Part shown: in pieces, positions 3,626 through 21,737 of the stretch
Numbering within the stretch: the stretch's first letter is position 1
How the letters are laid out: every line of letters starts with the position of its first letter
DNA from: Geotalea uraniireducens Rf4
GTDB lineage: Bacteria; Desulfobacterota; Desulfuromonadia; Geobacterales; Geobacteraceae
Length of the DNA: 32,000 nt
Direction: 5' to 3'
Assembly (NCBI RefSeq): GCF_000016745.1
Contig: NC_009483.1
Location: forward strand, 2,850,001-2,882,000
The notes under the pieces: generated by a model
The model's database searches: none
What the model was told of the DNA's origin: nothing
The model's input: the letters and a program-made list of their open reading frames with translations, nothing else
Position numbers and translations under genes: made by a program

Positions 3626-3698
3626 AATGAGTAAGAATGCGGAGCGCAAGGAATCTTCCCCACGGGCGCAGCAAAGGCAGGAGAAAATTCGGTCTTTT

Positions 3699-5210: not shown

Positions 5211-6356
5211 CTATCTCAGCGAAGATATTCTACAAGCCACGGCATCCCAATCAATCTCCGTTGTCATATGACACCAGCTGAGGCGGACGCAGGCATTCGC
5301 TTCGTCATCGCTCATACCCATCGCCTTCAACACATGACTTGGTGTATAATTACTCGATGTGCACGCCGAGCCGTTGGAGATCGCAATCAAATCCTTCAGG
5401 GCAACTATCAGGGCTTCAGAATCAAGACCGGGAAAGGCCAGGTTAAGAACATGATCCATCGCCAAGGACTGCTCGCCAGTCAATTTCGGTTCAAGAGGTG
5501 ATAAGGCCTTCAACGCATTTTCCCGCATGCACCGGCAGGCTTCTCTCCGTTTTTCGTTATCACGCACAGCAATCTCGGCTGCCGTTCCAAGGGCAGCTAT
5601 CAGTGCTACCGGCAATGTTCCCGGCCGCAGGCCACGCTCCTGCCCCCCACCATAGACGAGTGGTTGCAGTAGTATGCGCTCATAGCCACGCCTCCGCATG
5701 ACTAAGGCGCCGATTCCCTTTGGTGCATAAATTTTATGTCCGCTGATACTGATGAGATCGATCCGTAGATTACGTAGTAGCTCTAAATCCTTACCAAAAC
5801 CCTGCGCCGCATCGGTGTGGAAGTAGGCAGGATGATTCTTTAGTATTTCGGCAATATCATCCAATGGCTGGCGGATACCGGTTTCATTATTCGTCTGCAT
5901 GACTGAAACCAGCAGTGTATCCGGCCGTAGAGCAGCTTTTATCGCTTCCAGTTCCACCACACCACCAGCGCCAACAGGCACTCGTGTTACTGCAAAACCA
6001 GCCCGTTCAAGGGCATCGCATGGCTCCAGCACGGCCTTGTGTTCAATGGCCGTGGTGATAACGTGTTTCTTCCCCTGCTCCTCTCCCGCAGCCCGTAAAC
6101 CGAGAATTGCAAGGTTGTTGCTCTCCGTCGCGCCGCTGGTAAAAATCACCTCGTCACGCTTGGCTGAAACTACAGCGGCTACCTGATCCCGCGCTTTCTG
6201 CACCGCCTGTTTAGCCCGTGCGCCGAATTCGTGGGTACGGCTCCCCTCATTGCCGAAGTCCTCTGTCAGGTAACGGAGCATTACCTCTCGAACCTCAGCA
6301 TCCAGGGGGGTGGTAGCATTGCAATCCAGATAGATAGTTCCCATAAAATTCCCCAT
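5211..6356 (-). CDS. dndA: Cysteine desulfurase, NifS/IscS-like (DndA)
   Basis: PLP-lysine motif SGHKIYAPKG and active-site Cys loop SNGSACTSS. Divergently adjacent to dndBCDE, the classic dndA arrangement. Confidence 0.85.
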   Translation of the reverse strand: MGNFMGTIYLDCNATTPLDAEVREVMLRYLTEDFGNEGSRTHEFGARAKQAVQKARDQVAAVVSAKRDEVIFTSGATESNNLAILGLRAAGEEQGKKHVITTAIEHKAVLEPCDALERAGFAVTRVPVGAGGVVELEAIKAALRPDTLLVSVMQTNNETGIRQPLDDIAEILKNHPAYFHTDAAQGFGKDLELLRNLRIDLISISGHKIYAPKGIGALVMRRRGYERILLQPLVYGGGQERGLRPGTLPVALIAALGTAAEIAVRDNEKRREACRCMRENALKALSPLEPKLTGEQSLAMDHVLNLAFPGLDSEALIVALKDLIAISNGSACTSSNYTPSHVLKAMGMSDDEANACVRLSWCHMTTEIDWDAVACRISSLR

Positions 6357-6476: not shown

Positions 6477-7553
6477 ATGGATACGAACTCTACCCTTTCA
6501 TTCCCAGTTATTCGCGGACTACAGGCCCATCGCGAATATTACGTTGCCATGTGGACACTCCGGATGATGAGGCAAATTTCGATATTCAATGAAGATGAAC
6601 TCCCTCCGGAACTACGCGCCCAGCGAATCCTCAACAAGGCGCGCATACCGGAAATCGCCGAGTATATCATCGACAACCCGGATGATTATGTTTTTTCTGC
6701 CCTCACCGTTTCAATCGATTCCGACGTCCTGTTTGAGCCGCTCCCCGGCCAGGATAAACTCGGTCTGCTCCGCGTCCCAATGGATGCCCATTTCATCATC
6801 AACGATGGCCAGCACCGCCGGGCCGCTATTATCGAGGCACTGAAGCAACGACCCGAACTGGAACACGAAACAATCGCCGTAGTCTTTTTCCTAGACATAG
6901 GCCTGGAGCGCTGCCAGCAGATGTTTGCCGACCTCAATCGCTACGCCATCCGTCCGAGCCGCTCGCTGGGCCTGCTGTACGACCACCGCAACGACAAGGC
7001 CCGCTTGGCAAAAATGGTTATCATGAAATCGGAAATCTTCCGTGACCTGGTGGACATGGAGAAATCCTCTCTCGCCCCCCGCGCCCGAAAACTCTTCACA
7101 CTCTCCGCATTTTACAACGCCTGTGCCGATCTTGTTAACGGCTTAGCTACTGGCAATCTGATAGAAGACGCAGATCTTGCCCGCACATTTTGGGAGGAGA
7201 CAGCCAAGCATTTCCCTATGTGGGAGCAAGTGCGCGAGGGGAAACTTCCTGCCAGTGAGGTGAGGGAAGGATTTATCCACTCCCATGGAATTGCGCTCCA
7301 GGCCATCGGCAAGGCGGGAAATGCTCTTCTGCACAGCCATCCAAACGACTGGAAAAAACGACTGAAAGCCCTGGAAAAAATCGATTGGTCGCGCAACAAT
7401 GCCAAGATATGGGAAGGCAGAGCCATAATTGGCGGCAAAGTCTCCAAATCCACCACTAACGTCGTCCTGGCCACAAATGTCATAAAGAAAGCCTTATCGC
7501 TCTCTCTCAGCGAAGAAGAACAGCGAGTCGAAACAGCACACCTCAAAAAGTAA
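6477..7553 (+). CDS. dndB: DndB (DGQHR-domain protein, regulator of PT modification)
   Basis: Exact DGQHR motif (FIINDGQHRRAAI). 358 aa. First gene of the dndBCDE set. Confidence 0.9.
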   Translation: MDTNSTLSFPVIRGLQAHREYYVAMWTLRMMRQISIFNEDELPPELRAQRILNKARIPEIAEYIIDNPDDYVFSALTVSIDSDVLFEPLPGQDKLGLLRVPMDAHFIINDGQHRRAAIIEALKQRPELEHETIAVVFFLDIGLERCQQMFADLNRYAIRPSRSLGLLYDHRNDKARLAKMVIMKSEIFRDLVDMEKSSLAPRARKLFTLSAFYNACADLVNGLATGNLIEDADLARTFWEETAKHFPMWEQVREGKLPASEVREGFIHSHGIALQAIGKAGNALLHSHPNDWKKRLKALEKIDWSRNNAKIWEGRAIIGGKVSKSTTNVVLATNVIKKALSLSLSEEEQRVETAHLKK

Positions 7554-7577
7554 TTCAGAATAAACAGACAGGCACCC

Positions 7578-9233
7578 ATGAAAACAGCAAAAAAGAAAGC
7601 TGGTGTTCCAGCAACAAATGATTCTGTACAACCTGAATGTACGGTAACTGAAACATCTCTTCCCAACACAGACAACTCAAATTCGCCAGCTGCAAAGGTC
7701 CGCAAATCGGCCTTCAATGAACTCGGTTTCCAGGCGACCATCGAGCTGCTTCAGGAAGAAATCCGTAGCCTCTACATTGCCGACGAAATCCCCTGGATCA
7801 TCGGCTATTCCGGCGGCAAGGATTCCACCGCAACCCTCCAACTGGTTTGGACCGCCATCGCAGAACTTCCTGCTGAACAGCGCCGGAAAACGGTCTATGC
7901 AATCTCCACCGACACCATGGTGGAAAATCCGGTCGTAGCTGCATGGGTGGCTAATTCGCTCGCTGTCATGAAGCGAGCTTCTGCCGAGCAACTGGTACCC
8001 ATACAACCTCGCCGCCTGACACCGGCTTTGGTAGATTCTTTCTGGGTCAATTTGATCGGGAAAGGGTATCCTGCCCCTCGACACAAATTCCGCTGGTGCA
8101 CGGCCCGCCTGAAAATTTCACCCTCCAACTCCTTCATCAACAGCATCGTATCTTCAAGTGTCGAAGCCATTCTCGTCCTTGGTACTAGAAAGGCAGAGAG
8201 CTCAGCCCGTGCAGCCAACATGGCTCGACATGAAAAGGGACGAGTCCGGGATCGGCTCAGTCCCAATTCCAGCTTACCTGGCTCACTCGTCTACTCTCCC
8301 ATTGAGGCTTGGACAAACGACGATGTCTGGTTTTATCTCATGCAAGTTAAAAATCCGTGGGGCTACAACAATCGGGATCTGCTTGGCATGTATGCCGGGG
8401 CATCTGCTGATGGCGAGTGTCCGCTCGTCGTAGATGATTCAACGCCGAGTTGCGGTGACTCACGTTTTGGCTGCTGGGTCTGCACCCTGGTGGACAAAGA
8501 CAAGTCCATGACCGCCATGATTCAGAATGACGAAGAAAAAGAATGGATGATGCCACTGCTCGATATCCGCGACGCTCTGGATTTCCGCAGAGACCACAAG
8601 GGCGAATACGCTGAAAATGCTGATTATGACATCCGCGATTTTCGCCGCATGAGCGGTGCCGTCCAAGTGATGTCGGGTGGCCGCCCAATTCCCGGACCCT
8701 ACATTCAGAGCGCTCGGGAAGAATGGCTTAGGAAGTTGCTCATTGCCCAAACCTACATCCGCAAAAACGGCCCACCCGAAGTACAAGGGATAGAACTGAT
8801 AACCCTGGAAGAGTTACAGGAGATCCGTCGTATCTGGGTGGTAGACAAGCACGAACTGGAAGACTCTCTGCCCCGCATTTACCGGGAAGCTACCGGCAAT
8901 GATTACCCAGGCCGCCCACTAGATGACAATCTGGTGATTGGCGAGGAAGAAATGCACGTTCTTGCCGAACTATGCGGAGAAGATCGCCTGCACTATGAGC
9001 TTACGCGCGAACTATTGAGTATAACCCGGCAACAACGGACAACCTCCCGTCGTGCCGGTCTTCATGAGCAACTAGAGAAGACCTTTTCCCGCCATTTTTA
9101 CGACGACAAGCAGGACGCCCTCACCCGCGCCCAGCAGATGGCCGATCAAAAGCAACGTTTGTCCAATAATCGCCAGCAGTTCGTTTCGGTCGTCATGGAA
9201 CCTTTGGCCTGCGATCAGGAGGGCGAAGCATGA
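7578..9233 (+). CDS. dndC: DndC (PAPS-reductase/PP-loop ATP pyrophosphatase family sulfurtransferase)
   Basis: PP-loop SGGKDS (IGYSGGKDSTAT) and Cys cluster CGDSRFGCWVC. 551 aa. Stop overlaps the dndD start (ATGA at 9230-9233). Confidence 0.9.
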   Translation: MKTAKKKAGVPATNDSVQPECTVTETSLPNTDNSNSPAAKVRKSAFNELGFQATIELLQEEIRSLYIADEIPWIIGYSGGKDSTATLQLVWTAIAELPAEQRRKTVYAISTDTMVENPVVAAWVANSLAVMKRASAEQLVPIQPRRLTPALVDSFWVNLIGKGYPAPRHKFRWCTARLKISPSNSFINSIVSSSVEAILVLGTRKAESSARAANMARHEKGRVRDRLSPNSSLPGSLVYSPIEAWTNDDVWFYLMQVKNPWGYNNRDLLGMYAGASADGECPLVVDDSTPSCGDSRFGCWVCTLVDKDKSMTAMIQNDEEKEWMMPLLDIRDALDFRRDHKGEYAENADYDIRDFRRMSGAVQVMSGGRPIPGPYIQSAREEWLRKLLIAQTYIRKNGPPEVQGIELITLEELQEIRRIWVVDKHELEDSLPRIYREATGNDYPGRPLDDNLVIGEEEMHVLAELCGEDRLHYELTRELLSITRQQRTTSRRAGLHEQLEKTFSRHFYDDKQDALTRAQQMADQKQRLSNNRQQFVSVVMEPLACDQEGEA

Positions 9234-11206
9234 TACTGGATACGATCATACTGGAAAACTATGGTGCTTACGGTGGACGGCAGGAAGCTCTCCTTACTCC
9301 TGAAGAGGGGAAGCCTATCATCCTTTTCGGTGGTATGAACGGCGGCGGTAAAACAACCCTGCTCGACGCTATTCAACTGGCCTTCTATGGGCCAAAGGCG
9401 CGTATCTCCAACCGGGGCAAGCTTGGCTATAAGGAGTACCTCCGGGAATCGATCCACCGCGGCGGAGATCCGGGCGAAGGGGCCGGCATCACGGTGCGCT
9501 TCCGCCGGGTCATCGAAGGTAAAAGTAGAAATTTCGAATTACAACGTTGCTGGCGTGAAGGGGTTAAAGGAATCGAGGAAACTGTTAGGGTCCTTCGTGA
9601 TGGCCTCCCCGATGATATATTCACCGAACATTGGGATGAATCCATCGAAGCCTATCTCCCCAGCAGTATCGCCCACCTCTTCTTCTTTGACGGCGAACAG
9701 ATCAAGGAGTTGGCCGAGGGTGGCCACGCTGCTGATATTCTCGGCACAGCCATCCACTCCCTGCTGGGTCTTGATTTGGTTGATCGCCTGGAAAACGATC
9801 TCAAGGTGTTTGAACGGCGCAAGAAAGCCGAAGGACTCGACCCCGAAGCAACAAGGAAGCTAGCAATTGCGCGAAGTGAGTTCGTTGAAATCTTCCGGGA
9901 GGAGGAAAAGGCCGCTTCGTTGTCGGGTGCACTCACCAATGAATCAAACCAACTTGCAAAGGAATTGCATGCTAAAGAAGAATTATTCCGGAAGGAAGGT
10001 GGCGATCTTTTTTTACGGCGCAAAGAGCTGGAAGATGAGCTAGTCGCACTGAAGGCCCGGAAAGCAGCAACAGAGGCGCAATTCCGAGAGCTGATCGCTG
10101 GACCGCTGCCGTTCCTTCTGGTGGAAAACCTGCTTGCCGAAGTGGAGCAGGTCGTTCGTCATGAAACCGAAATAAAGCGTGCTCGGGTATTGTTGGAGGT
10201 ATTGGAAACCCGCGACACTGAGGTGCTGGACTCCCTGAAAGCGGAAAAGATCGGTGGGCAGCTACTTCGCTCCATGGACAGGATTCTGGAAAAAGACCGC
10301 AAAAGCAGGGCCGGACTAGCGAAGAAAACATTAATTCTCGACGCAGATGACACTCTGGCCCCGCAGATAGCCCATTTGCGTGGGACCGTACTCCCGACAG
10401 CCGAACAACAGGCGTGTGACTTCACTGCAAAAATTGCTGCCTTGGACGAGAAAATTGCCCGACTGGAAGGTGAACTGGATCGTGCTCCGACTGCGGAGCG
10501 GATTGCAGAAGTTCAAGAGGTGCTGGAAGCAGCCCGAAAAGCCCATCAGGCTAAACTGGCTGAACTTGAGGCGATAAAGGTGCGCCGCCAGGCGTTACAG
10601 CGGCAACGACTGATGGCGGAAGCCAGGTTAGACAAGATGGGAGAAAATGATGTTAATTCCCAATTCCATGAGGATGGCCGCCTGCGGATGCTTAAACACT
10701 CGCTTCGGGTGCGTGAGACTCTTGGGCGATTCCGCACTAAGATCGTAAAACATCACACTGAGAACATGGAATCGCTGATGCTTGAATCCTTCTGCAAGCT
10801 GCTCCGTAAGAAGGAGTTGGTTAGTGGACTAAAGATAAATCCTGAGACATTCGAGGCCACGCTTGTAACCAAGGATGGGAAGATCCTCCCCTTTGAACGT
10901 CTTTCCGCTGGCGAAAAGCAACTCCTAGCAACGTCACTTCTCTGGGGTCTTGCTCGCGCTTCCGGACGCCCTGTGCCAACAATTATTGACACTCCACTGG
11001 GGCGGCTCGACTCTTCACACCGTAAGCATCTGATAGAACGCTACTTCCCGAATGCCTCCCATCAGGTTCTATTGTTGTCTACAGATGAGGAGATTGTTGG
11101 GACTTATTACAAGGAACTGAAACCCTTCATAACCAGAACCTATCTTCTTGAGCACAACGAGGAGGCGGGGCAAACAAATCTTAAGCAAGGATACTTCAAC
11201 GTATGA
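9230..11206 (+). CDS. dndD: DndD (SMC/ABC-like ATPase)
   Basis: Walker A GGMNGGGKTT, long coiled-coil middle, signature-like LSAGEKQ, Walker B/D-loop TIIDTPLGRLD. ATGA overlaps at both ends. Confidence 0.9.
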   Translation: MILDTIILENYGAYGGRQEALLTPEEGKPIILFGGMNGGGKTTLLDAIQLAFYGPKARISNRGKLGYKEYLRESIHRGGDPGEGAGITVRFRRVIEGKSRNFELQRCWREGVKGIEETVRVLRDGLPDDIFTEHWDESIEAYLPSSIAHLFFFDGEQIKELAEGGHAADILGTAIHSLLGLDLVDRLENDLKVFERRKKAEGLDPEATRKLAIARSEFVEIFREEEKAASLSGALTNESNQLAKELHAKEELFRKEGGDLFLRRKELEDELVALKARKAATEAQFRELIAGPLPFLLVENLLAEVEQVVRHETEIKRARVLLEVLETRDTEVLDSLKAEKIGGQLLRSMDRILEKDRKSRAGLAKKTLILDADDTLAPQIAHLRGTVLPTAEQQACDFTAKIAALDEKIARLEGELDRAPTAERIAEVQEVLEAARKAHQAKLAELEAIKVRRQALQRQRLMAEARLDKMGENDVNSQFHEDGRLRMLKHSLRVRETLGRFRTKIVKHHTENMESLMLESFCKLLRKKELVSGLKINPETFEATLVTKDGKILPFERLSAGEKQLLATSLLWGLARASGRPVPTIIDTPLGRLDSSHRKHLIERYFPNASHQVLLLSTDEEIVGTYYKELKPFITRTYLLEHNEEAGQTNLKQGYFNV

Positions 11207-11601
11207 GACCACCAGTTGAGCATGTGCGAGTTAGCACTAAGGGGAAAGAAATATTAATCAAGATAAAAAGACGTACAGGTCTAGAGCATTGGAACGAAGT
11301 ATGTAGAGTGGCACTTTGCCATTCGCTTTCAAATCCAACATCGCCTCCGAAGCTTGAAAGAGTCAGTGACAGCACAATCGATATTGAATGGAAAACGTTC
11401 GCAGGACAGTATCAAAAAGAATTTGCTGCTATGATCATGCTTAGGAGCAAGCAACATGGCATAAATATAAACGATAGAGAGGAAATAGCTCAATATTTTC
11501 GATCTCACCTAGAGAGAGGAATCGTGTCCTTGCAGACTAGCAAAGATGTTAGCAGCTTGTTCCATTATTCTCAGCATTTTGAGTTGAAAGATAATCCATG
11601 A
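11203..11601 (+). CDS. dndE: DndE
   Basis: 132 aa. N-terminus RVSTKGKEILIKIKRRTGLEHWNEVCRVALCHSL fits the DndE pattern. Translationally coupled to dndD (ATGA at 11203-11206). Confidence 0.8.
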   Translation: MRPPVEHVRVSTKGKEILIKIKRRTGLEHWNEVCRVALCHSLSNPTSPPKLERVSDSTIDIEWKTFAGQYQKEFAAMIMLRSKQHGININDREEIAQYFRSHLERGIVSLQTSKDVSSLFHYSQHFELKDNP

Positions 11602-11995
11602 TTTGTTCGTAAACTTTTACAGCCAATTCATCTCCCCATGAGTACCTGCACCTAGCAGGTGCAGTTCTAGTAGTATCTGAAATTATTTTTTCAATAGGTG
11701 CCAATCGAGGGAGATTAAGAATGCACTTTTCATGAACTCTGTGTTCAATATATTGAGTGACTATTTTATGTTCATCCTGAGATAACTTTGCGATTTCTTT
11801 ACAGTCTATACAAAGAAATACTATCTCCTCATCCATTGCCCATAAATCTTGATCAGCTTCCTTTAATCTCTTTGTGAAACTTCCAATCTCTTGTAAATGC
11901 TGCCCCCATCTAGATACAGGATGTTGCTGTGTCTCTCCAATATAAATGCAGTAGCTTTTTATAATCGCATAGATGTAAGGATGATGCGACTTACC
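11549..11995 (-). pseudogene. GIY-YIG nuclease-family gene, 3' portion; the 5' 11 codons lie at 13404-13436 on the far side of the IS
   Basis: YIYAIIKSYCIYIGET supplies the GIY...YIG motifs. The track ORF begins with a TTG inside the IS terminal repeat. Deleting 11996-13409 restores ATG ATT CGT TTT GCT GGA GCT ATA AGG GGT AAG | TCG CAT... in frame. Confidence 0.75.
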
Positions 11996-13403
11996 TGTCA
12001 AATGTCAGGACATCGGTTACCCAAGCCTAACTCTAAAAAGTGTCAGGACATCGGTTACCCGACCCCCTGATTATGCATACTATTTCATGAGCTGAACTCT
12101 GTAGGCATTCTGTACTCAAAGCTTTGAACAAAGTCTTCACCCAGGTACACTTGCAGCGTGTGAATTTCCGTTACGATCATGGCTCGCACATATGAATAGA
12201 CGAGGTCTTTTGAAACCTCAAATTTTTCGCCAAAGATGTTAAGTGTTCTATCGCTCCTGATAAATCTAATGAGCGAAATGGTGCCGTCCGGGAGAAAATC
12301 AAGTTTTGGCATCCTGGTATTTGGCCCCAGCGTCAAGGGCTTGAATTTGTCAGCTTCAATAACCTCCAGTGGCGTTTTCCCCTTGAGATAGCTGTAACGG
12401 TGATTCTTGTTGTGAAACTGCTGGAAATTCTTGCTTTGCCGCTTGAGCATGGAATAGCTTGTGAACCACTGGCGGCGAAAAAACTTTTTGTCATAGGTAT
12501 CGTTGAAGCTCTCTATTACGCCATCGCGCCACGGTTCCGCAACAGGGATAAAAACAGGATGAACGCCGAAGTAGAGACATAGTCGCAGCACCAGACCAAG
12601 TGACCTCGGATAGCGGTTACTGCCACGGAAACTGAGTTCATTGTCCATTTGCAGGAAGTCGGGAAGCCCCATTGACTTCCAGCAGCGCAGCAAACCCTGT
12701 GCAATGTTGTCATCCTCCTTGGTGCGATTTGATTCGATGAAGACCCGATGGCTGTACAGATCAATCACATTCATCGAGTAAAATCTGCCGTCACTCTTGA
12801 TGTAGCGGGGGCCAACAAGATCCATCTGATGGATGTTGTTGCAGCACAGGGCTTCGGTAAAGTACGGGTACTCGACCCCTTTGGGGGAATATCTCGTTTT
12901 TTTTAACGAGTCCTTCCCGCTTCAGGGTCCGGTTAATGGTGCTGTCAGAGCGAAACGGTAACCCCAGCTTATGCAGCTCCCACTTGATAGCGGAAACGCC
13001 AATCTGTGCAAATGGTGACGAGTCCAGGCGGTTTCTGGTGGAGACAATAATCTCCTTATCTACGATGCTGAGTTCAGACGGTCTTTTAAGTGGCGCTCTT
13101 GAGTGTTCCTTGTACCAGTCAGTCGCGCCAGATTGATACCGGTTCAACCACTTAAAAAACCACTTCTTGGAGCGATCAAGGCTTGTATAGACTGCCTTGG
13201 GTGATTCGCCTGCAAGATGGCGCTGGACTGCTTGTTTCCTGAGTTCTTCTTCCATGCGGATGTTCTCCCCTCAAGTTGAAATCACAGAGAACATTGTAGC
13301 TGATATTTCTAATGAAGGTAACCGATGTCTTGACACAAAAAAGGGCGTTAAGGGTAACCGATGTCTTGACACATCCGGGTAACCGATGTCCTGACACTTG
13401 TCA
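11996..13403 (-). mobile_element. IS element (1408 bp), rve/DDE transposase, IS481-like or IS3-superfamily
   Basis: Terminal inverted repeats tgtcaaatgtcaggacatcggttaccc (left) and gggtaaccgatgtcctgacacttgtca (right). Direct 6-bp duplication CTTACC at 11990-11995 and 13404-13409. The about 20-bp IR core is reiterated subterminally (12003, 12040; 13317, 13352, 13377). Confidence 0.85.
12085..13255 (-). CDS. Transposase, HTH N-terminal part plus DDE integrase core, split into two frames at an A8 run
   Basis: ORF 12791-13255 carries the HTH part and ORF 12085-12825 the rve core (HQMD...LQMDNE...GVIESFN). The downstream frame stays open back to the A8 run (plus-strand T8 at 12897-12904), giving ...KKTRYSPKGVEYPYFTEALCCNNIHQMDLVGPRYI. 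Confidence 0.7.
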
Positions 13404-13432
13404 CTTACCCCTTATAGCTCCAGCAAAACGAA

Positions 13433-15133
13433 TCATATTTTAATATTCCCAAAAATATGCTGATTGCCAGTTGCCCAGGCGCTTATGTTAAATGAAAGAA
13501 CGGAATAATATCGTTCAAATACTTTTCTAATACTATCTTCTGGCACCAAAGTTAAATTCTCGTAAGTTTTATTTTCACCAATTGCGCAGCAGAAAATAAC
13601 AGCTTCAAGCGCAAGTCTTTCTGGAGAAGACTCATCCAAATTTCCGAGAACAGATTGATAGAACGCATGTCTCCTGTTGATAATTACATAAGTTCCTTGT
13701 ACAGCGTCTTTCTGAGTACTCCACAGATTAATACCTGGAAGGTTGTCACTGTAACGTATCTTCACAAAATCACTCTCTTCAGTTGTAGAGGTCTCTTCTT
13801 CAGGCTCCTCAGGCTTAATTTTATCAAGAGTCTCCTTAGATTCTTCTTCTCGTTTCTTAGCTCTTTCCTTCCTCTCTGCTGGATCTGGTGGTGTAAGATC
13901 CTCGATAGGATCCTCTTCTGGGACCGAATCAACAGTATTTGTGAAGCCAGCACCCTCCCCATTCCCCTTTCGAAGAAGATCCTTACATACAGCAAAAACT
14001 TGAGCAGCTTGTTTTCGCGGCAATCGCATGAGGAGATCTAGATTATTCCTGGTTTCGTCATCCATTTCTAGACGCTGTTTTGACACATCAACATGTAAAA
14101 GGTCATCGTGTTCTGTTAATAATTCCATACGAGCACGAAACCCTATTAAATCTTTTGGCACCAAGTTGTCAAGATCATCTCCCCAACGAATAAGCCGACC
14201 GTTTCTATAAATAAAAAATCCTTTATTCTCCCGTGATACTCGGTATGTTCTAATACGCGCCCTATCATCCTCACCAAGAGGAGACGAAGAAGCCCCCATA
14301 GTATCCTGTGGAAATGTCACAACCTCTAGTTTTATTGGTGGTGCCCCCTCTTCTCCTAAAGCAGGAATATTCCACTCTCCTTTGAAGGCGAAACACGGTT
14401 TTTTCGCATCATATGATGTAGGATCGAAACCAGGATCAGAATCATGTGTAAACAATATATCGAAAGGCTTAATATCTAGACCTTCTTCCCCAGGGTATAT
14501 TAACTTAATATTTAAGCGCGAACCCTCCGATGCAGATAAAAATGAATAGTAAGTTACTCCTAGACGATGTTTGAGTTTCTCTATAGTAGTCTTTGCCGAG
14601 GTATGGTAAATAGAGCCACAACCTGATATTTCAACGATAGTTCCTGAAGAATTAGGCAACAGAGAAGTAATTTCTTCTTTTTCAATTGCTGTTAAGTCTT
14701 CACAACAGACAACATATTCGTTTCTTGCTTCAATCACTTTTCTGTCTAAAAAATACTTTCGCGTTAGCTGACCTTCTGTTTTACTGATGATTTGAATTCG
14801 AAGTCCCAAAGAAAACCCAGCAGACTTTAATCCCATCCCATACTTAGACAGACTGTTCTGCTTGTAGTTAGCATCTGAGCCAAGCTTGAAAGCGTTTTTT
14901 ATTCCATCCTCATCCATGCCCTTCCCATCATCAACAACACGATACCTCGCGACATTATTCCTCTGATTTATCGTTTTTCCTTCAACCAAGTCAACGTAGA
15001 GCTTTACATTTAAAGCATCGGCGGCAACAGAGTTATCAATAATATCCATTAGTGCTGAATGTGGCTCATAGCCTATTCTCGCTATTGCATCGCAAACACG
15101 AACAGCATTCATTGAGATAGGAATTGTTTCCAT
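13433..15133 (-). CDS. GHKL-superfamily ATPase (HATPase_c_3 / MORC-like), 566 aa
   Basis: Bergerat-fold motifs: N-box MDIIDNSVAADA, DDGKGMDEDG, SKYGMGLKSAGF. Acidic low-complexity linker (EEDPIEDL...EEPEEETSTTEESD). AGGAGA RBS 7 nt upstream of the ATG. Confidence 0.75.
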   Translation of the reverse strand: METIPISMNAVRVCDAIARIGYEPHSALMDIIDNSVAADALNVKLYVDLVEGKTINQRNNVARYRVVDDGKGMDEDGIKNAFKLGSDANYKQNSLSKYGMGLKSAGFSLGLRIQIISKTEGQLTRKYFLDRKVIEARNEYVVCCEDLTAIEKEEITSLLPNSSGTIVEISGCGSIYHTSAKTTIEKLKHRLGVTYYSFLSASEGSRLNIKLIYPGEEGLDIKPFDILFTHDSDPGFDPTSYDAKKPCFAFKGEWNIPALGEEGAPPIKLEVVTFPQDTMGASSSPLGEDDRARIRTYRVSRENKGFFIYRNGRLIRWGDDLDNLVPKDLIGFRARMELLTEHDDLLHVDVSKQRLEMDDETRNNLDLLMRLPRKQAAQVFAVCKDLLRKGNGEGAGFTNTVDSVPEEDPIEDLTPPDPAERKERAKKREEESKETLDKIKPEEPEEETSTTEESDFVKIRYSDNLPGINLWSTQKDAVQGTYVIINRRHAFYQSVLGNLDESSPERLALEAVIFCCAIGENKTYENLTLVPEDSIRKVFERYYSVLSFNISAWATGNQHIFGNIKI

Positions 15134-15151
15134 AAATTTTCTCCTCTAAAT

Positions 15152-15877
15152 TCAAATAGTGAGTTCTAAATCCAACCGCCCTGCGCTTTCTTCTTTCTGT
15201 GTTTCAATAAACGCAAGCAAGCCATCCAGATCGAGCGGACGACCAGTAAAGAAGTCCCTCAAAATCTCAAGCCCTCCATTCGCATACTCCTGAAATACGG
15301 AAACCCTATCGTCCTCCGCTTCCGCAGAACCCGAGAGACAATTGGAGTTTTGGGTTTCAGCCAGTGTCATAAGGTAGAGCACACCCGGCCAGGCTGGACA
15401 GTTGCCAAAGGTACTTTGATCAATTCCTTTGCCTGCATCAACAGCCTTCAGCGGCAATCGCTTATCATTCCTCATCCCTACCTGAGCGGCAAAAAGGAGA
15501 AGCTTCCATATTTCCTTGAAAACACCGACTTGATCGGACATCAGGGTCTTGATGATTTCCTCTTTATCATTTGCCCGTTGAATTCGTTTCATACCGGAAC
15601 CCGCCCTTTTCCTTGCAGTTGTTCGTATGCCAGAACTCAAATCATAAACATCATCACTCACCATTTCGAACAACACCTCGTCTGAAGAATCCACACGTTC
15701 AACGTTTCCAGTCTGCCTGCGAATTGTAGTCCGCAGTACATGCTCAGGTGTTGGTGTATTGAACTCGTAAAGCTTTCTTCGCACGATTTCAGCGTAAATC
15801 TCATCAATGGACGCTGCTCTGCCCAGAGCACGCAGCACCTTCTGCGCTACTTCGGCGATAGTGTCTTTGGTGTTCAT
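15152..15877 (-). CDS. HARE-HTH/Mrr_N-like winged-helix protein with an uncharacterised C-terminal domain (possibly a Dnd-associated family)
   Basis: The N-terminus VAQKVLRALGRAASIDEIYAEIVRRKLYEFNTPTPEHVLRTTIRR...LFEMVSDDVYDL fits the HARE-HTH pattern. I could not place the C-terminal half. ATGA overlap with the upstream gene at 15874-15877. Confidence 0.5.
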   Translation of the reverse strand: MNTKDTIAEVAQKVLRALGRAASIDEIYAEIVRRKLYEFNTPTPEHVLRTTIRRQTGNVERVDSSDEVLFEMVSDDVYDLSSGIRTTARKRAGSGMKRIQRANDKEEIIKTLMSDQVGVFKEIWKLLLFAAQVGMRNDKRLPLKAVDAGKGIDQSTFGNCPAWPGVLYLMTLAETQNSNCLSGSAEAEDDRVSVFQEYANGGLEILRDFFTGRPLDLDGLLAFIETQKEESAGRLDLELTI

Positions 15878-17973
15878 AGCGGCACGATCTCCGTATATTC
15901 ATCAGTTTCCAGCGGGAAATACTGCTGAATTTTTTGTCCCTCAACTATGAGTTCCGGTGCTGCCTTCTCCGGCATTGTCGGGCCATAGTAGGTAAGGTAG
16001 TAACGCTTGCCAATGCGCCCGGAAGAAGAAAGCACTGCCTCGACTTCACCGTCGTACTGTTTCGGGCTGACAAAGAGAACTACCTGCGGCGCAAGCTCGG
16101 GAATGTATTTCGCAACACCCTCACGGAAGATGCTTAAGGAGCCAAAGGGAGAATCTATTGCAATTGGAAAGGTTGACCCAGCCAGATCCCTGAGTATGGT
16201 TGGAATTTCCGATCGTCGCTTCGCCAGGGCAACAAGACTGGCTATAAAGACAAGCGAAGTTACGGTTCGTTCCCCGGTACTTAACGCTGCATCGATCTCC
16301 ACCGGGTCGGCACCGCCATCGCCTCCAGCAACTCTCTTGCGAATCCGCAGGGTGAAGTTATCTGTCAACTCCGCCCAATAATCCTTGGTCATTATCTTGC
16401 GGAAATGACTGTCGATTTCCGCATTGAGAAGTGGCCGAAGGTCTTCGGTTTCAGCTTTCAAGATTTGCGTAAGGATATTGATGCAGTCCTCAACTGCGTC
16501 TACCCGGCGTTGTGCACGGGCTGCGGCTTCTTCTTTGTCTGCAATCTGACGAATTTGCGCTTCCAACGTTTCTATTTCGACTGTTGCAGCTTTGATCTGA
16601 CCGTCTATTCGTCCAAGGGCTGCGTTCTGCCCATCGCGATCAAGATGCAAAGACTTAAACTTCTCCTCAAGCTGATTAACCTCTTCATCCTTTTTACCTC
16701 CGAGAGCCTGATGAATCTCCTCAAGTTCTTCGTCACGCTCACGGATGTCGCGGGAAAGCTCAAGACGCTCCAGCTTCAACTGATTTAGCAGTTCCTGAGT
16801 CTGACCGCCAACCCCTTCTATGACTCCGATTGCGTGATCAAGAGCACCCACAGCGTTATTGAAGTCCTGATCTCCAGCTATGGTCAGGAGATTTTCAACG
16901 GCAGCACGCTCAGGAGAACCTTCTGCAAGGCTCCGGGTGCAGATGCATTTGCTATGCTCCAGCAGCTCCTGTAAAAAGGTGTTCAATACTCGCGCAGGAA
17001 TTTTCCCCTCGCTACGGAGTTGAGCGATGATTTCGCAGCCACGATTAATCAATTTGGAAGTTAGAAGAGTGTAGCCGTCATCTGATATAAGCTTAGACAG
17101 GCGTTTCGTTACCTCGTCACGCTTACCAGCCAATTCCTCTCTCTCGCGTGTAAGATGAATACGCTTGGATTGAAGCTCGTGCGCCACGCGATTGGCAGCC
17201 AACTTATCATTTACTGACGCAAGTTCTGCGTTAATAGCTTTCAAGTTAGCAAGCGTCTGATCTTGTTGGCCGATATACTCCTTTATCAGCTCTTCTTGTC
17301 TTGAGAGTTGTTCAATCAATTCCCTCTTCTCTTCACTTGTTGTCTCTTTTTGCTCAGTACGAAGTTTGCCGCGGACATTCTGGTGACGAAGGTCATCGAT
17401 TGTAATCTTTAGTAAATCAAGGCCTAGCATCTGGTGTATGGCATCGGTTACCTGGGAGCTGTTGCGCTCCATGGCCAAGTAGTTAATGCGTTCACCATTG
17501 AAAAAAAGGAATCGGCTGATGCCATCAGGGATGAGTGCTTGAATGCGCTGTTGCGGTCGATCAAGAGAGAAAGTCTGCCCGTTTCTCATCACTTCAAGCG
17601 ATAGCGTTGTCTGCCTCGGGTTCAGATTTTGTTGTGCCAATGAAAGCTGGCGAGTCAGTACATAGCGATCCGCATCGTGTTTGAAGGTTATCTGCACAGA
17701 AGCCGTGAGAGCCAGTGGATCTTTAGCGCGGAGAGCGAGACCTTCATGAATAATCCGATCAGGACGTTCGAAGTCGTCGGGGTTACCGTCAATGCCCATT
17801 AAACCATCACGACCGTAGAAGCACCAGACTAAAGCTTTGAGCAGGGTGGTCTTCCCAAAGCCGTTTTCTGCATGGACAACCGTTACGTTACGTTCGCGGA
17901 GATCTGAGAAGACGAGCTCCTGGCGCCCCTTGAACTGTCGAAAATTCTCCAGTATGAGCCGCTCTAATATCAT
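15874..17973 (-). CDS. DndD-like SMC/ABC ATPase (paralogue of the dndD in this window)
   Basis: MILERLILENFRQFKGRQE...ENGFGKTTLLKALVWCFYG parallels DndD MILDTIILENYGAYGGRQE...GGGKTTLLDAIQLAFYG. Also LFFNGERI vs FFFDGEQI, LSTGERT vs LSAGEKQ, and IAIDSPFGSLS vs IIDTPLGRLD. Long coiled-coil middle. Confidence 0.8.
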   Translation of the reverse strand: MILERLILENFRQFKGRQELVFSDLRERNVTVVHAENGFGKTTLLKALVWCFYGRDGLMGIDGNPDDFERPDRIIHEGLALRAKDPLALTASVQITFKHDADRYVLTRQLSLAQQNLNPRQTTLSLEVMRNGQTFSLDRPQQRIQALIPDGISRFLFFNGERINYLAMERNSSQVTDAIHQMLGLDLLKITIDDLRHQNVRGKLRTEQKETTSEEKRELIEQLSRQEELIKEYIGQQDQTLANLKAINAELASVNDKLAANRVAHELQSKRIHLTREREELAGKRDEVTKRLSKLISDDGYTLLTSKLINRGCEIIAQLRSEGKIPARVLNTFLQELLEHSKCICTRSLAEGSPERAAVENLLTIAGDQDFNNAVGALDHAIGVIEGVGGQTQELLNQLKLERLELSRDIRERDEELEEIHQALGGKKDEEVNQLEEKFKSLHLDRDGQNAALGRIDGQIKAATVEIETLEAQIRQIADKEEAAARAQRRVDAVEDCINILTQILKAETEDLRPLLNAEIDSHFRKIMTKDYWAELTDNFTLRIRKRVAGGDGGADPVEIDAALSTGERTVTSLVFIASLVALAKRRSEIPTILRDLAGSTFPIAIDSPFGSLSIFREGVAKYIPELAPQVVLFVSPKQYDGEVEAVLSSSGRIGKRYYLTYYGPTMPEKAAPELIVEGQKIQQYFPLETDEYTEIVPL

Positions 17974-18158
17974 TTGATCACCCGTTTTACATGCTCAAAG
18001 AGTCGCTGATGAATATCACTGCGCCGCTTCAGGTGCATCACGTCGCGCTCTTCTTTCAGAATATCTCTGATGAGCGTCTGGTATTCAGGAGATGCGGCTT
18101 TAAAGATTTCCTGGGCGCGTGTCAGTTTTTTTGATTGTTCAGGCAGCTGATCTGTCAT
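17970..18158 (-). CDS. Small (62 aa) helical protein of unknown function
   Basis: Sits 6 nt after the PLD-helicase stop and overlaps the DndD-like gene start by ATGA (17970-17973). No motif recognised. Support is positional only. Confidence 0.5.
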   Translation of the reverse strand: MTDQLPEQSKKLTRAQEIFKAASPEYQTLIRDILKEERDVMHLKRRSDIHQRLFEHVKRVIK

Positions 18159-18164
18159 AATAAA

Positions 18165-20285
18165 TTACTCCGATAACAAGTTATATTTCAGGCGCAAATC
18201 ATGTAATGAATGCAATGCCTCTGGGCCGTTTTCGGCCATCCGGCAAAACTCCACAATCCTGCTCAATTCCCTCTGGAAAAACGATCGTTCCATATTAAAC
18301 CCATCATCATCAAGACTGCCACCAAGATCAGGCGGTTGCACAATAAAGTCGTAGATGATCGCCCGATTCTTCCCCGGCGAATTCCTCAGCAGCCGACCAC
18401 GGCGCTGTACAAACTGTCGCGGATTGGTAGAGCTGGCAAGCAGGAACCCCATCCGCAAATCCGGCAAGTCAATTCCCTCATCCAGACACCGTATCGCTAC
18501 GACACCATCCAGAAAGCCGCTCGTCAGGTCGCGCAGGATTTCTTCCCGCTCTTCAGTGCTCTCCCGAAAAGTGAAATTCCGCACCCGGAGACCATGTCTT
18601 TCACCCAACAGCCGAGAAACAGCCTGAATCTGGCGAACTTCTTCATCGGTAATGGCATCAGTCGTTCGCCCGTCGCCACAATAGAAGATGGCTTTTTTCG
18701 GCGGCTCAGGTAGCGAAGCAATGACCCGATCCAGGGCAGCGAGTTTATTCTCCGCGCCGGCAAGAAGCCGCGCCCTCTTGATAAGAAGCCGCATGGCCAC
18801 CTGCTGCATTTCACTGTCGTCATCCCCTTTGGAGAAAAACTTTGCCAGCTTGGTAGTTATCTCTTCATAGGCATCGGTTTCGGTCTCGGTCAGCTCTACG
18901 GGAATCGGGTAGTAACGATACCGGCAAAGGCGACCGTCGGCAATAGCCGATGATAGAGGATATTCATAAACGATATTTCCGAAATAGTCCAGCACTGCCG
19001 ACGTGCCAACCGGGTCGTAGTGACGTTCCGGGGTAGCAGAGAGCCCCAGACGCAGGGCAATTCCATCCGGCAGAGCCTCCCGAATCCGTTCTGCCCCCAG
19101 GTTATGGACCTCATCGGCAATCAGGAGATGATGGACTGCCAACGTCGCCACTCGTGGGCGAATGCGCGCCTGGAAACTCTCGCTTTGAAACGTTGCGTTG
19201 GTGGCAACAATGGCATGTACCTGCGACAGTCCGACTGAAAGCCTTTGATACCCCTCCTCCAGCTCTGCCTGCCACCGATCTTTCCCCTCAAAGCAGGCAA
19301 CCGGCTGCAGTCCGAAAGCCGCCATCTCTCGCAGCCACTGTCGGCAGAGATTGATAAACGGACAAACCACGATAAGGACAAGCGGACGATTCTTTTCCGC
19401 AACCTTGCTGGCCAGGGTGAGCGCGGTCAACGTCTTCCCGGAACCGGTGGCCATGGCAAAAATCCCCTTGCCTCCCGCCTTGCTCCAGGCACGAATGGCG
19501 TCAGCCTGGTAGGGACGAAGTTCAAAGCTCTTGGGTGGGATGAATTCCGTGTGCAGTCCAGGCTCTTTTACCCGGTCGAGCGATAAGCCCGCTGGTGGCT
19601 TGTCCAGATCACGGAAGCGCTCCAGCAGTTCTTTACCGGCTTCACTGAATTCCATGATCCGCAGCCCCGGTGTCGAGTCGTTCCAGAGCGCTTCAAAGTT
19701 CTCCACTTCTTCTTGTACCCGGCCTTCCTGATCGCGCCACGAACAGAAAACCTTGATGCTTTCGAAGTTCTCCACCAACCCGCCAGCTGTCTCGTTGGAC
19801 GAACCGGAAAATGCCACGAGGTTCCCGTCTCGATCGGTGAAAATGCCCGTTTTCTCATGGAAAATACCACGGGAAAATCCACCCCGAGCATCCAGCCGTA
19901 GAGCAAGCTTGATCTCCAGCAGACCGGCAGCAGCAAGCCACGCCAGGGCGTTGAGCCGATCCTTGATCAAGGCATCTTCAATACCAGCAAGACTCCGGGC
20001 AGCTATTGCGCGTAAAGCATCAGCAGGATTACTGGCCGCCGCCTGGAGCGCCTCCACATCCGCCGGTTCCAGATAGGGTGAAACTACCAACTTCATCTTT
20101 CCTCGCCGGGACGCGAGACTGGCCACCCCACTTGCCGCCAATGCAAGACCGGCACTGGTAAAATATCCCGCCGCCCGGCGATAGAGGACAGACGACTCCA
20201 GACACGGGATAAAGAAATCCCTTACCAGATCATCACGCCCGGTGCGGTAGGAAAGGTTGATTGTTATGTCAGAAAGATTGGGCAA
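18165..20285 (-). CDS. PLD-family nuclease domain fused to an SF2 (ResIII/DEAH) helicase
   Basis: HKD motif FHEKTGIFTDRDGNLVAFSGSSNET. Helicase motif I MATGSGKT, II LIADEVHNL, III LGLSATP, VI QRRGRLLR. Apparent TTG start. Confidence 0.85.
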   Translation of the reverse strand: MPNLSDITINLSYRTGRDDLVRDFFIPCLESSVLYRRAAGYFTSAGLALAASGVASLASRRGKMKLVVSPYLEPADVEALQAAASNPADALRAIAARSLAGIEDALIKDRLNALAWLAAAGLLEIKLALRLDARGGFSRGIFHEKTGIFTDRDGNLVAFSGSSNETAGGLVENFESIKVFCSWRDQEGRVQEEVENFEALWNDSTPGLRIMEFSEAGKELLERFRDLDKPPAGLSLDRVKEPGLHTEFIPPKSFELRPYQADAIRAWSKAGGKGIFAMATGSGKTLTALTLASKVAEKNRPLVLIVVCPFINLCRQWLREMAAFGLQPVACFEGKDRWQAELEEGYQRLSVGLSQVHAIVATNATFQSESFQARIRPRVATLAVHHLLIADEVHNLGAERIREALPDGIALRLGLSATPERHYDPVGTSAVLDYFGNIVYEYPLSSAIADGRLCRYRYYPIPVELTETETDAYEEITTKLAKFFSKGDDDSEMQQVAMRLLIKRARLLAGAENKLAALDRVIASLPEPPKKAIFYCGDGRTTDAITDEEVRQIQAVSRLLGERHGLRVRNFTFRESTEEREEILRDLTSGFLDGVVAIRCLDEGIDLPDLRMGFLLASSTNPRQFVQRRGRLLRNSPGKNRAIIYDFIVQPPDLGGSLDDDGFNMERSFFQRELSRIVEFCRMAENGPEALHSLHDLRLKYNLLSE

Positions 20286-20515
20286 TATGGCTCTCAGCGC
20301 TAAGTTTTGATGCCTTCGTAAAGATCGTTCATTTCAGGAGATCGAAGAGGTGAGATACTCCTGTTGCTGCTTTTCTGGATTTACGACAGTAAAAAACTGG
20401 ATGGTCAAGTTTAAACATTCTCCAACTATTTTCCCCGCTGGAATCTCTCCACACTCCGCTCAGTTCAGTGTTATTCGCAATATTCCGGAAGCATGCAACA
20501 ATTTACTTTCCCCAA

Positions 20516-20740
20516 CAAAAAAGCCGCCAATCAGCATATCCCTGACCAGCGGCTTTTATCTACACGCAGTGCATCTATTCCACTTTCTATCACTCATCCC
20601 AAAAAACTCCACATAACACAATAAAATGAGCCTTCTATTTACACCCCGGATGCACTCGCTGTCAACCTTTAGCTATGTATTTTCTAACACACTCTTCTTC
20701 CCCATTAACCAGACACGACTCCACCCTCCCCCACCCGACA
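20516..20740. repeat. Direct repeat copy A (partner 21342-21737)
   Basis: Begins with a bidirectional terminator-like hairpin aaaaagccgcc...gcggctttt. It then shares tacacgcagtgcatctattcc...ctccacataacacaataaaatgagccttctatttacacc...gtcaacctttagcta...ccagacacgactccaccctcccccacccgaca with copy B. Confidence 0.85.
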
Positions 20741-20879
20741 TCATCTTAATCCTTACCCGGCCCTAATTACTCCTCTGGGTCGATCTTGCCGAAAACAGTT
20801 CGCAGCTCCGGATGCTGGGCCAGAGTATCGCGGAGATATTCATCAATGAGCGCATCGTAAATGCCGGCAGCAAGGTACT

Positions 20880-21296
20880 TCATCGGAAGCCTGCCTTACA
20901 TTCGGCAAGATACGACCCAATCACTGGGACATCAGCCTCAGCCCAGTCGAGGGTATGGAGTTTCTCCGGAGGCAGCCAGACGATGGCAGCGTGCTCGTGA
21001 AGCACGATCACGCCCGAATTAATAGAGCAGACAAACGGATGGAGCGTAACAGCGAAGGTCGGGTAATGGTGCATGCTGGTCGGCAAGCTCTTACCGATGA
21101 TCACGTGAATGCCCATCTCTTCAACCAGTTCGCGCCGCAGGCACTCTTCCGGCGTTTCACCGGGGTCGATCTTGCCTCCGGGAAACTCCCACTTGAGCGG
21201 CAGGCTCATGGCGGCGCTCCGTTGGGCGGCCAGAACGAGACCGTCCTGTTCGATGATAGCGCAGGTGACATTAATGTGTATTGCTTTTGCAGACAT
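20880..21296 (-). CDS. NUDIX hydrolase (MutT-like)
   Basis: Nudix box GGKIDPGETPEECLRRELVEEMGI. 138 aa. Confidence 0.85.
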   Translation of the reverse strand: MSAKAIHINVTCAIIEQDGLVLAAQRSAAMSLPLKWEFPGGKIDPGETPEECLRRELVEEMGIHVIIGKSLPTSMHHYPTFAVTLHPFVCSINSGVIVLHEHAAIVWLPPEKLHTLDWAEADVPVIGSYLAECKAGFR

Positions 21297-21341
21297 AGCC
21301 GCCTAATTTTCCATGCAAATAAACAGGGGGCAACGAATGGT

Positions 21342-21737
21342 CAAAAAAAAGCCGCCAATCAGCATATCCCTGACCCGGCGGCTTTTATCTACACGCAGTG
21401 CATCTATTCCAAAGTTTATCACCCATCCCCAAAAACTCCACATAACACAATAAAATGAGCCTTCTATTTACACCCTGGATGCGCTCGGTGTCAACCTTTA
21501 GCTAGAGTCTGTCGGACTAAGGAATGAATCTACTGCGAGAATGGCAAATCGGTCCATATCTCCGTAAATTTTCGACGAATAGGTCCACTATTCGCTCTCA
21601 AATTTCCGGAAATCTGTCCTCGATTTTCCATCCTCTCGCTACGATTCCCTAAGTCCGACAGACTCCTGGGAATTTTCTAACAAAACTACTTATACACCCC
21701 GTCACCCAGACACGACTCCACCCTCCCCCACCCGACA
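21342..21737. repeat. Direct repeat copy B, interrupted by a 161-bp palindromic insert
   Basis: Collinear with copy A, apart from scattered substitutions, except for 21505-21665. Confidence 0.85.
21505..21665. mobile_element. MITE-like palindromic element (161 bp)
   Basis: Absent from repeat copy A at the equivalent point. Termini gagtctgtcggactaaggaat / attccctaagtccgacagactc are inverted repeats. The interior is also largely self-complementary (gcgagaatggcaaatcg / cgattttccatcctctcgc). Confidence 0.6.

Follow-up and report, generated by a model that had tools for sequence, protein, structure and literature searches.

Introduction

The restriction partners of DNA phosphorothioate (PT) modification were listed in a 2025 review as three branches only, dndFGH/sspFGH, sspE, and pbeABCD. 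Here, we analyse a cluster of six minus-strand open reading frames (ORFs), at positions 11549–20285, that converge on the dndBCDE modification genes of Geotalea uraniireducens Rf4. The cluster lies in a 32,000-nucleotide stretch of contig NC_009483.1 (positions 2,850,001 to 2,882,000 of the forward strand), which we call the window and to which coordinates refer unless another locus is named. The six genes are numbered in the direction of transcription. In the reading that we favour as rather probable, the region consists of PbeABCD (genes 1 to 4) and a separate, PT-linked pair made up of a MORC-like ATPase and a GIY-YIG nuclease (genes 5 and 6), which would act in PT-dependent restriction and whose copy in this genome is probably disabled.

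The closest described systems are as follows. In a haloarchaeon, all four pbe genes are required for the PT-dependent block of virus replication, and DNA cleavage by PbeABCD was not detected (Xiong et al. 2019, PMC6459918). The re-annotation by Krishnan et al. (2024, PMC10853773) lists an HKD protein fused to a superfamily 2 (SF2) helicase, a small disordered protein, a CxC ABC ATPase, and a DndE cognate, and it predicts cleavage. A CxC zinc hook at the tip of the coiled coil defines this clade of ABC ATPases. The same reappraisal of Dnd systems finds URI (GIY-YIG) nucleases at system boundaries, never with a GHKL or MORC partner. A second relevant system is DndI, a DUF262 NTPase fused to an HNH nickase, which can pair with dndBCDE on its own; PT stimulates its ATPase activity and causes the nickase to dissociate from self DNA (Tang et al. 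2024, PMC11662687). Finally, a role in DNA looping tied to an epigenetic mark has been proposed for prokaryotic MORC proteins (Iyer, Abhiman and Aravind 2008, PMC2292703).

Genes 1 to 4

By sequence, genes 1 to 4 are PbeABCD, one-to-one and in the published order, that is, an already known and experimentally characterised system. The A-B-C-D order, the single direction of transcription, and the position beside the dnd modification genes all match the definition of PbeABCD. The initial annotation had suspected that pbeABCD-type modules might overlap part of the cluster; the overlap is present and is larger than supposed. The one-to-one orthology with a known PT module that was named there as refuting novelty is thus found for genes 1 to 4 and does not extend to genes 5 and 6.

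The evidence for the individual genes is as follows. PbeA matches the PADLOC PbeA model over residues 4–689 (E 2e-235). Its placement in the ‘DNA phosphorothioation system restriction enzyme’ family, which the initial annotation had suggested, holds, with a score of 652 bits against TIGR04095 (cut-off 600). Pfam recognises PLDc_2, ResIII/DEAD, and Helicase_C domains, and the motifs HEKTGIFTD...GSSN, GSGKT, DEVH, SAT, and QRRGR are intact, with one HKD motif. PbeC matches its PADLOC model with E 6e-132 and the DndD model TIGR03185 with 152 bits, under the cut-off of 246; its Pfam domains are AAA_23/SMC_N. The sequence CIC occupies residues 343–345 of 699, the midpoint of the protein, and an LSTGE signature is present. 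The small PbeB protein has no match in the PADLOC, NCBIfam, or Pfam libraries, which hold no PbeB profile, and its assignment is by position and size, 62 residues here versus 66 in Haloterrigena jeotgali (PMC6459918). It is 79–81% identical to its counterparts in three metagenomic or genomic loci of the survey described below (L004–L006) and is probably regulatory.

Residues 97–238 of PbeD match TIGR04062 (dnd_assoc_4) with 160 bits (cut-off 74), and the N-terminal HARE-HTH domain, residues 6–63 approximately, gives a Pfam match below threshold (E 4e-4). At least 120 clusters share this 241-residue architecture, and many of these have PF05066 among their precomputed assignments; the UniRef name for this PbeD is ‘HTH HARE-type’. 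Therefore, the HARE-HTH form of PbeD is a common bacterial variant, and it is the only local peculiarity of genes 1 to 4. The PADLOC models detect neither PbeB, PbeD, nor the GIY-YIG protein, even at E values up to 10.

The cluster had also been described as lacking anything that resembles DndF, DndG, or DndH, and this was borne out: the DptF, DptG, and DptH models (TIGR03236, TIGR03237, and TIGR03238) have no match among the proteins of the region. The same models score 313–1363 bits on a Vibrio cholerae locus, L065, which shows that they work. Genes 1 to 4 add nothing new, and the interest of the locus lies in the remaining pair.

Distribution of the ATPase–nuclease pair

Public genomes and metagenomes were searched with the GHKL protein of gene 5 alone, and the flanks of each match were then inspected; the loci are designated by L numbers. 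Since the query was the GHKL protein only, the survey is not biased towards dnd. Clustering of the homologues at 70% identity gave 27 lineages. Sequence downstream of the GHKL gene extends to at least 600 nt in 25 of them, and in 23 of these the next gene, at a spacing of −1 to 60 nt, encodes a GIY-YIG protein. Of the two lineages that depart from this pattern, the distant L061 (33% identity) also has such a partner, as judged by Pfam and hhalign.

Flanks of at least 4 kb on each side are available for 17 lineages, and dndB, dndC, dndD, or dndE is present in 16 of these. The PT linkage that had been proposed for the cluster holds, and dndA to dndE of the window itself score above their cut-offs. 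The one lineage without these genes is again L061, where the context is a PAPS-reductase-like protein, DUF4007, and a dnd-related methyltransferase. Pbe, on the other hand, accompanies the pair in only 4 of the 17 lineages. The neighbourhood check suggested with the initial annotation therefore has two outcomes, in that the pair is co-inherited with dnd (16/17) and not with Pbe (4/17).

The arrangements are diverse. The pair stands alone with dndBCDE, and convergent on dndE, in Stutzerimonas stutzeri, Pseudomonas aeruginosa, Methylomonas, and Edaphobacter. In the S. stutzeri genome CP073105.1, the pair and dndBCDE are found among housekeeping genes, with the pair between nrdAB and dndBCDE. In V. 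cholerae, the pair comes immediately after dptF-dptG-dptH. A single array dndC-dndD-dndE-GHKL-GIY with overlapping stops and starts also occurs, and in other loci the pair is divergent from dndB or adjoins dndA. Where Pbe is present, the pair follows it in L004–L006 and in L025, in the latter with an extra 188-residue gene between, and precedes it in L027. The six-gene order of the window is intact in L004–L006 and partial in L009–L011.

Several loci deserve mention in their own right. The V. cholerae locus L065 (ACAMGG010000010.1, 1946–12149) has dptF-dptG-dptH-GHKL-GIY convergent on dndBCDE and an Mrr-type nuclease beyond dndA, so that one modification operon is accompanied by three candidate restriction modules. 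In L061 (1562–8667) and L062, the distant pair comes right after a 374-residue PAPS-reductase-like gene, near genes for a DUF4007 protein, an HNH_4 protein, and a methyltransferase–HIT fusion with a weak ‘dnd_rel_methyl’ match. These two loci may represent a different sulfur- or modification-type system with the same effector pair. On the short contig L063, the gene just upstream of a distant GHKL homologue (29% identity) encodes a stand-alone 98-residue HARE-HTH/winged-helix protein (1400–1696; Pfam E 3e-7).

One machine or two modules

The initial annotation regarded the six genes as one undescribed, integrated module. On this proposal, cleavage, which was not observed for PbeABCD alone, would be contributed by the MORC-like ATPase and the GIY-YIG nuclease. 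The arrangement in the window agrees with it, since the genes are co-directional, only 18 nt separate pbeD from the GHKL gene, and there is no enrichment of terminator- or promoter-like sequences between them; so do the loci that keep the six-gene order wholly or in part, and the recurrence of Pbe plus the pair in the divergent loci L014, L025, and L027. The rest of the survey opposes it. In 13 of the 17 adequately flanked lineages the pair is found without Pbe, and a single lineage, with GHKL proteins at least 70% identical, has Pbe in L024 and L025 and none in L019. Moreover, the order is reversed in L027 and broken by an extra gene in L025. In the published system, PbeABCD alone is sufficient for defence.

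The position that the pair occupies is itself variable. PbeD relatives with 57–88% identity have other genes between pbeD and dndE, unrelated cargo that again speaks against a six-protein machine. This slot contains a HARE-HTH+Mrr nuclease, a DndB-like protein, and an unknown protein in L057 (9756–12476), a 640-residue GmrSD_N/GmrSD_C protein in L058 (9743–11665), and an FRG-domain protein, an unknown protein, and a DndB-like protein in L059 (9740–12335); in L060, it is empty. The slot between pbeD or dptH and dndE looks promising for further PT-linked effectors.

Base composition also separates the two parts sharply. The G+C content of the pair is 0.37–0.40 versus 0.48–0.55 for the pbe genes (0.55 for pbeA) and 0.53 for dndBCD; L004, L005, and L007 show this dip over the pair as well. 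In composition, then, the GHKL/GIY-YIG pair is foreign to its surroundings. The low-G+C stretch, 11203–15133, also takes in dndE (0.40).

Because the pair is inherited without Pbe, occurs on either side of it, shares its slot with other cargo, and differs in G+C, genes 5 and 6 are separate from Pbe. The integrated six-gene module thus did not survive, and we consider a single machine quite unlikely. Module 1 is the segment 15152–20285, PbeABCD, and module 2, 11549–15133, is an autonomous two-gene unit; module 1 acts, and module 2 is predicted to act, through the PT mark made by the neighbouring dndA and dndBCDE genes. This two-module architecture is very probable. What survives of the earlier proposal is the close tie of the last two genes, an ATPase and nuclease pair, to dnd.

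The MORC-like ATPase

The GHKL protein matches HATPase_c_3 of Pfam with E 1e-34, and its sequence is 100% identical to that of a known G. uraniireducens protein. Its AlphaFold2 (AF2) model has a mean predicted local distance difference test score (pLDDT) of 83, and the best fold matches in the PDB are the ATPase modules of MORC2, MORC3, MORC4, and SMCHD1, in keeping with the MORC-like character originally ascribed to it. The matches to MORC2/3/4 cover about 420–460 columns, with E values of 5e-16 to 1e-13 and target-normalised template modelling (TM) scores of 0.49–0.58. The residues invariant in the family are D30, D33, N34, D68, G70, G72, G99, G101, T165, and K352. ATP-binding motifs I to IV are present (D30/D33/N34, D68xGxG72, G99/G101, and G164-T165), and the GHKL domain is followed by an S5-fold transducer that carries the invariant K352. 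Motif I reads D30-I-I-D-N34, and the Asp at residue 30 (window position 15044–15046 approximately) is invariant across 25 family members. In MutL, Hsp90, and MORC, the catalytic Glu stands at the position of this Asp.

The C-terminal domain, residues 452–566, was modelled separately with pLDDT 88; in a search for a sulfur-binding or winged-helix fold, it has no PDB match better than E 0.76. The family is small: a threshold of E ≤ 1e-30 yields 108 representative clusters from 1.84 billion proteins. The sole PADLOC match of the protein is a weak one to MzaB. The NCBIfam MzaB model gives 64.5 bits (cut-off 850), confined to the GHKL domain, which falls short of an MZA assignment.

The GIY-YIG nuclease and its insertion

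Gene 6 is interrupted by an insertion sequence (IS). The terminal inverted repeats of the IS are 93% complementary, and the target is duplicated as a 6-bp direct repeat, CTTACC, at 11990–11995 and 13404–13409. The transposase has rve and HTH domains, and its best matches, to IS481, score 64 and 49 bits, short of the cut-off of 224 because the ORF is split. Deletion of one A from the A8 run at the split restores a continuous 389-residue transposase ORF, and the split is either a frameshift mutation or a site of programmed or transcriptional slippage.

Excision of the 1,408-bp IS together with one copy of the duplication gives a 157-residue ORF. Its ATG, at 13436, overlaps the GHKL stop as ATGA, which confirms the overlap deduced earlier by conceptual removal of the IS. 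The repaired protein matches Pfam GIY-YIG (PF01541) with 28.2 bits (gathering threshold 22.6) and is 82% identical, over the full length, to the uninterrupted gene in the metagenomic locus L004, which has the same six-gene order. PF01541 is matched by 15 of 22 family members. Y18, Y27, G29, R38, W39, H42, E93, and S115 are invariant, and the catalytic Tyr/Tyr/Arg/Glu are among them. The family profile finds only a marginal match among PDB sequences, T4 endonuclease II (E 0.67). The product is a divergent yet bona fide GIY-YIG domain. The domain calls made at the outset (PLD/helicase, SMC-like, HARE-HTH-like, GHKL, and GIY-YIG) are thus supported, the HARE-HTH call weakly.

The IS cuts the nuclease gene after codon 11, which deprives it of its start, of the conserved N-terminus, in which Gly6 is nearly invariant, and of the link with the ATPase gene. 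For this reason, module 2 is probably inactive or impaired in this G. uraniireducens genome, while PbeABCD and dnd are intact.

Truncated GHKL or GIY-YIG frames are found in several metagenomic loci (L040, L042, L043, L051, and L012) despite a continuing contig. In L042, nothing beyond GHKL residues 2–339 is retained although 5.6 kb of sequence follows, and the GIY remnant of L051 is 45 residues long. The pair seems to decay often, as it did here through the IS.

Proposed role of the pair

We propose the following scheme for module 2, in which the MORC-like GHKL ATPase would be translationally coupled to a GIY-YIG nuclease of about 155 residues. A dimer of the ATPase would clamp or loop DNA in an ATP cycle modulated by the PT status of that DNA. 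On PT-free DNA, the ATPase would license the separate nuclease to nick or cut. The logic would be that of MutL–MutH, and the pair would be a two-protein counterpart of DndI, whose genomic slot it occupies. A restriction role is favoured because the pair is linked to dnd in many arrangements, because it occupies a nuclease slot, and because most dnd systems do without it. For this PT-dependent restriction role, which we infer from genomic context and the paradigms of the families, we put the chances as even.

A second explanation is that the pair serves PT modification in repair or maintenance, with a MutL-like ATPase and a UvrC-like nuclease processing Dnd-generated nicks or oxidised PT lesions. 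In its favour, MutL and UvrC are classic repair members of the GHKL and GIY-YIG superfamilies, respectively, and the pair is linked to the modification genes themselves, even in the single array dndCDE-GHKL-GIY, and persists beside DptFGH or Pbe, which already provide restriction. However, only about 108 representative clusters exist among the 1.84 billion proteins, so most dnd systems do without the pair. It also sits in a variable slot of known or predicted restriction nucleases (DptFGH-adjacent, GmrSD-type, and Mrr), its G+C is foreign, and its nuclease is disrupted by the IS here while dnd is intact. A repair accessory is, thus, unlikely.

A third explanation sees the pair as an effector of suicide or abortive infection, independent of PT and situated at the margin of the dnd island. 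A suicide role has been proposed for standalone URI (GIY-YIG) nucleases that border Dnd systems (PMC10853773), and GHKL–nuclease fusions, such as VcSduA, defend alone, with no modification partner; the failure to detect a PT-binding domain points in the same direction. Nevertheless, an effector of this kind would have no reason for dnd linkage, which was seen in 16 of the 17 lineages; these comprise at least five different arrangements and span Proteobacteria, Acidobacteria, and Desulfuromonadota-like loci. We regard this explanation as improbable. All three of the alternatives, the single machine, the repair accessory, and the suicide effector, are disfavoured by the neighbourhood data.

Several points weigh against PbeABCD plus a separate, disabled restriction pair. 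The first concern its activities: PT sensing, nuclease licensing, and anti-phage activity are carried over to the pair from context and from family paradigms, by analogy. No recognisable PT-binding domain was found, and D30 replaces the canonical catalytic Glu of the ATPase, so the rate of ATP hydrolysis is uncertain. The second concern its separateness. The pair is co-directional with pbeD and 18 nt away from it, here and in related loci, and Pbe plus pair combinations recur in divergent lineages, so that functional cooperation is possible. In addition, the mechanism of PbeABCD is itself disputed, with no cleavage seen (PMC6459918) versus the predicted HKD cleavage (PMC10853773). Finally, there is some doubt about the loss of function here. 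The remnant of gene 6 is a 150-residue ORF on the minus strand, 11549–12001, that is initiated by a TTG within the IS end and keeps the full catalytic core, and residual expression may occur.

Layout of the locus and flanking features

The features of the locus are collected in Table 1. The coordinates, sizes, and spacings of the six co-directional minus-strand genes convergent on dndBCDE agree with those first reported. The six ORFs are long and have very strong profile matches, and on these grounds they are not chance frames. dndA is divergent from dndB–dndE, and the five genes score above the NCBIfam cut-offs of TIGR03235 (dndA), TIGR03233 (dndB), TIGR03183 (dndC), TIGR03185 (dndD), and TIGR03184 (dndE). 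Genes 1 and 2 are separated by a 6-nt gap, and ATGA overlaps join the stop of pbeB to the start of pbeC and gene 3 to gene 4. The motif AGAGGAG precedes the GHKL start in the gap after pbeD. At the other end of the cluster, dndE and the GIY-YIG ORF converge, with a 53-nt overlap of their 3′ ends.

Table 1. Features of the dnd–pbe locus of G. uraniireducens Rf4 (window coordinates).
Feature	Position	Strand	Description
dndA	5211–6356	minus	NCBIfam profile score above cut-off
dndBCDE	6477–11601	plus	NCBIfam profile scores above cut-offs
GIY-YIG nuclease (gene 6), 3′ fragment	11549–11995	minus	Whole catalytic core
IS481-like element	11996–13403		1,408 bp; 27-nt terminal inverted repeats
IS transposase ORFs	12791–13255 and 12085–12825	minus	Split at A8 run, 12897–12904
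GIY-YIG nuclease (gene 6), 5′ fragment	13404–13436	minus	Codons 1–11; ATG overlaps GHKL stop; last 6 nt are a copy of the target duplication
GHKL ATPase (gene 5)	13433–15133	minus	566 residues, intact; GHKL, S5-type transducer, and uncharacterised C-terminal domain
pbeD (gene 4)	15152–15877	minus	241 residues; N-terminal HARE-HTH-like and C-terminal dnd_assoc_4 (DndE cognate)
pbeC (gene 3)	15874–17973	minus	699 residues; DndD-like CxC-type ABC ATPase
pbeB (gene 2)	17970–18158	minus	62 residues; between pbeA and pbeC; by position and size
pbeA (gene 1)	18165–20285	minus	706 residues; single-HKD (PLD-fold) nuclease fused to SF2 (ResIII/DEAD) helicase

A scan of 11000–21500 found promoter and terminator sites to be no more numerous than in shuffled sequence, and the scan is uninformative on operon structure. 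A near-identity DNA search of 11200–20400 against E. coli genomes and plasmids gave no match.

Repeats are found just upstream of pbeA. A direct repeat of about 160 nt, with copies at 20517–20675 and 21345–21504 that are 92–100% identical, brackets a minus-strand ORF for a 138-residue Nudix-like protein (20880–21296). A further pair of 41-nt repeats, 20700–20740 and 21697–21737, lies about 1 kb apart. The repeats may represent a small mobile or repetitive element, or they may mark the boundary of an island. On the far side of the locus, a small ORF adjoining dndA (in the region 3542–4398) has a weak match to the LigD 3′-phosphoesterase, and a PF13298 (LigD_N) gene holds the same dndA-adjacent position in L004 and L005. 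An MntA-like nucleotidyltransferase antitoxin gene is found at 4069–4398.

Comparison with known systems

Genes 1 to 4 share family, order, sizes, the CxC motif, and dnd adjacency with PbeABCD. PbeD differs in having 241 residues with a HARE-HTH versus 152 in the archaeal prototype, and genes 5 and 6 lie outside the described system. DndFGH/DptFGH and SspE/SspFGH are likewise PT-dependent restriction partners encoded beside PT-modification genes, but there is no homology, and none of the six proteins matches a DptF, DptG, or DptH model.

For the pair itself, DndI offers the closest parallel in position, being an NTPase plus nuclease downstream of dptFGH or beside dndBCDE (PMC11662687). In V. 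cholerae, the pair is found in this slot, behind dptH, and in L058 the place after pbeD is taken by a GmrSD-type protein. The folds, however, are unrelated: GHKL instead of DUF262, GIY-YIG instead of HNH, and two polypeptides instead of one. The fusion of a DUF262 (DGQQR) NTPase to HNH/DUF1524 that marks DndI and SspE is absent from the pair, in which the ATPase matches only HATPase_c_3 and the nuclease only GIY-YIG. Identity of the pair with DndI, a DUF262–HNH protein, was thus rejected, and the resemblance is positional and functional only.

The prokaryotic MORC and paraMORC proteins of restriction-modification systems share the GHKL plus S5 module and have neighbourhoods with nucleases, SF2 helicases (including HKD-Rad25-like ones), and DNA-modification genes; the text of that study mentions neither dnd or phosphorothioation nor GIY-YIG partners (PMC2292703). 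The legend to its Figure 2 names a neighbourhood from Geobacter uraniireducens together with HKD-helicase partners, and this neighbourhood may be the present locus.

In MutL–MutH, a GHKL ATPase controls a separate small nuclease, and the choice of strand depends on an epigenetic mark. A GHKL ATPase also controls a nuclease in paraMORC3/Shedu type I-D systems such as VcSduA (PMC12137116). MutH and Shedu differ from the pair in that their nuclease has the PD-(D/E)xK fold and not GIY-YIG, and VcSduA is, in addition, a fusion protein with no modification partner. These comparisons are mechanistic analogies only.

In the literature covered, which did not extend to subscription-only papers, we found no description of a GHKL/GIY-YIG pair with dnd or as a PT restriction module, and PADLOC v2 has no model for the pair. 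It is a candidate PT-linked module of the restriction type, composed of families that had not been connected with PT before, and it is found here beside a characterised one. If this is correct, the list of restriction partners of PT modification is extended, a bacterial MORC-like ATPase is matched with a concrete epigenetic mark and with a nuclease partner of its own, and a tractable model becomes available for MORC/MutL-type clamps that couple the reading of a mark to DNA cleavage. Compact natural test cases exist, such as dndBCDE plus the pair in S. stutzeri CP073105.1. It is tempting to propose, though we hold it slightly less likely to be true than false, that the pair is a further class of PT-dependent restriction effector, beside DndFGH/SspFGH, SspE/DndI, and PbeABCD, in which a MutL-like clamp would read the backbone mark and license a nickase, working with dndBCDE alone and stacking with DptFGH or PbeABCD.

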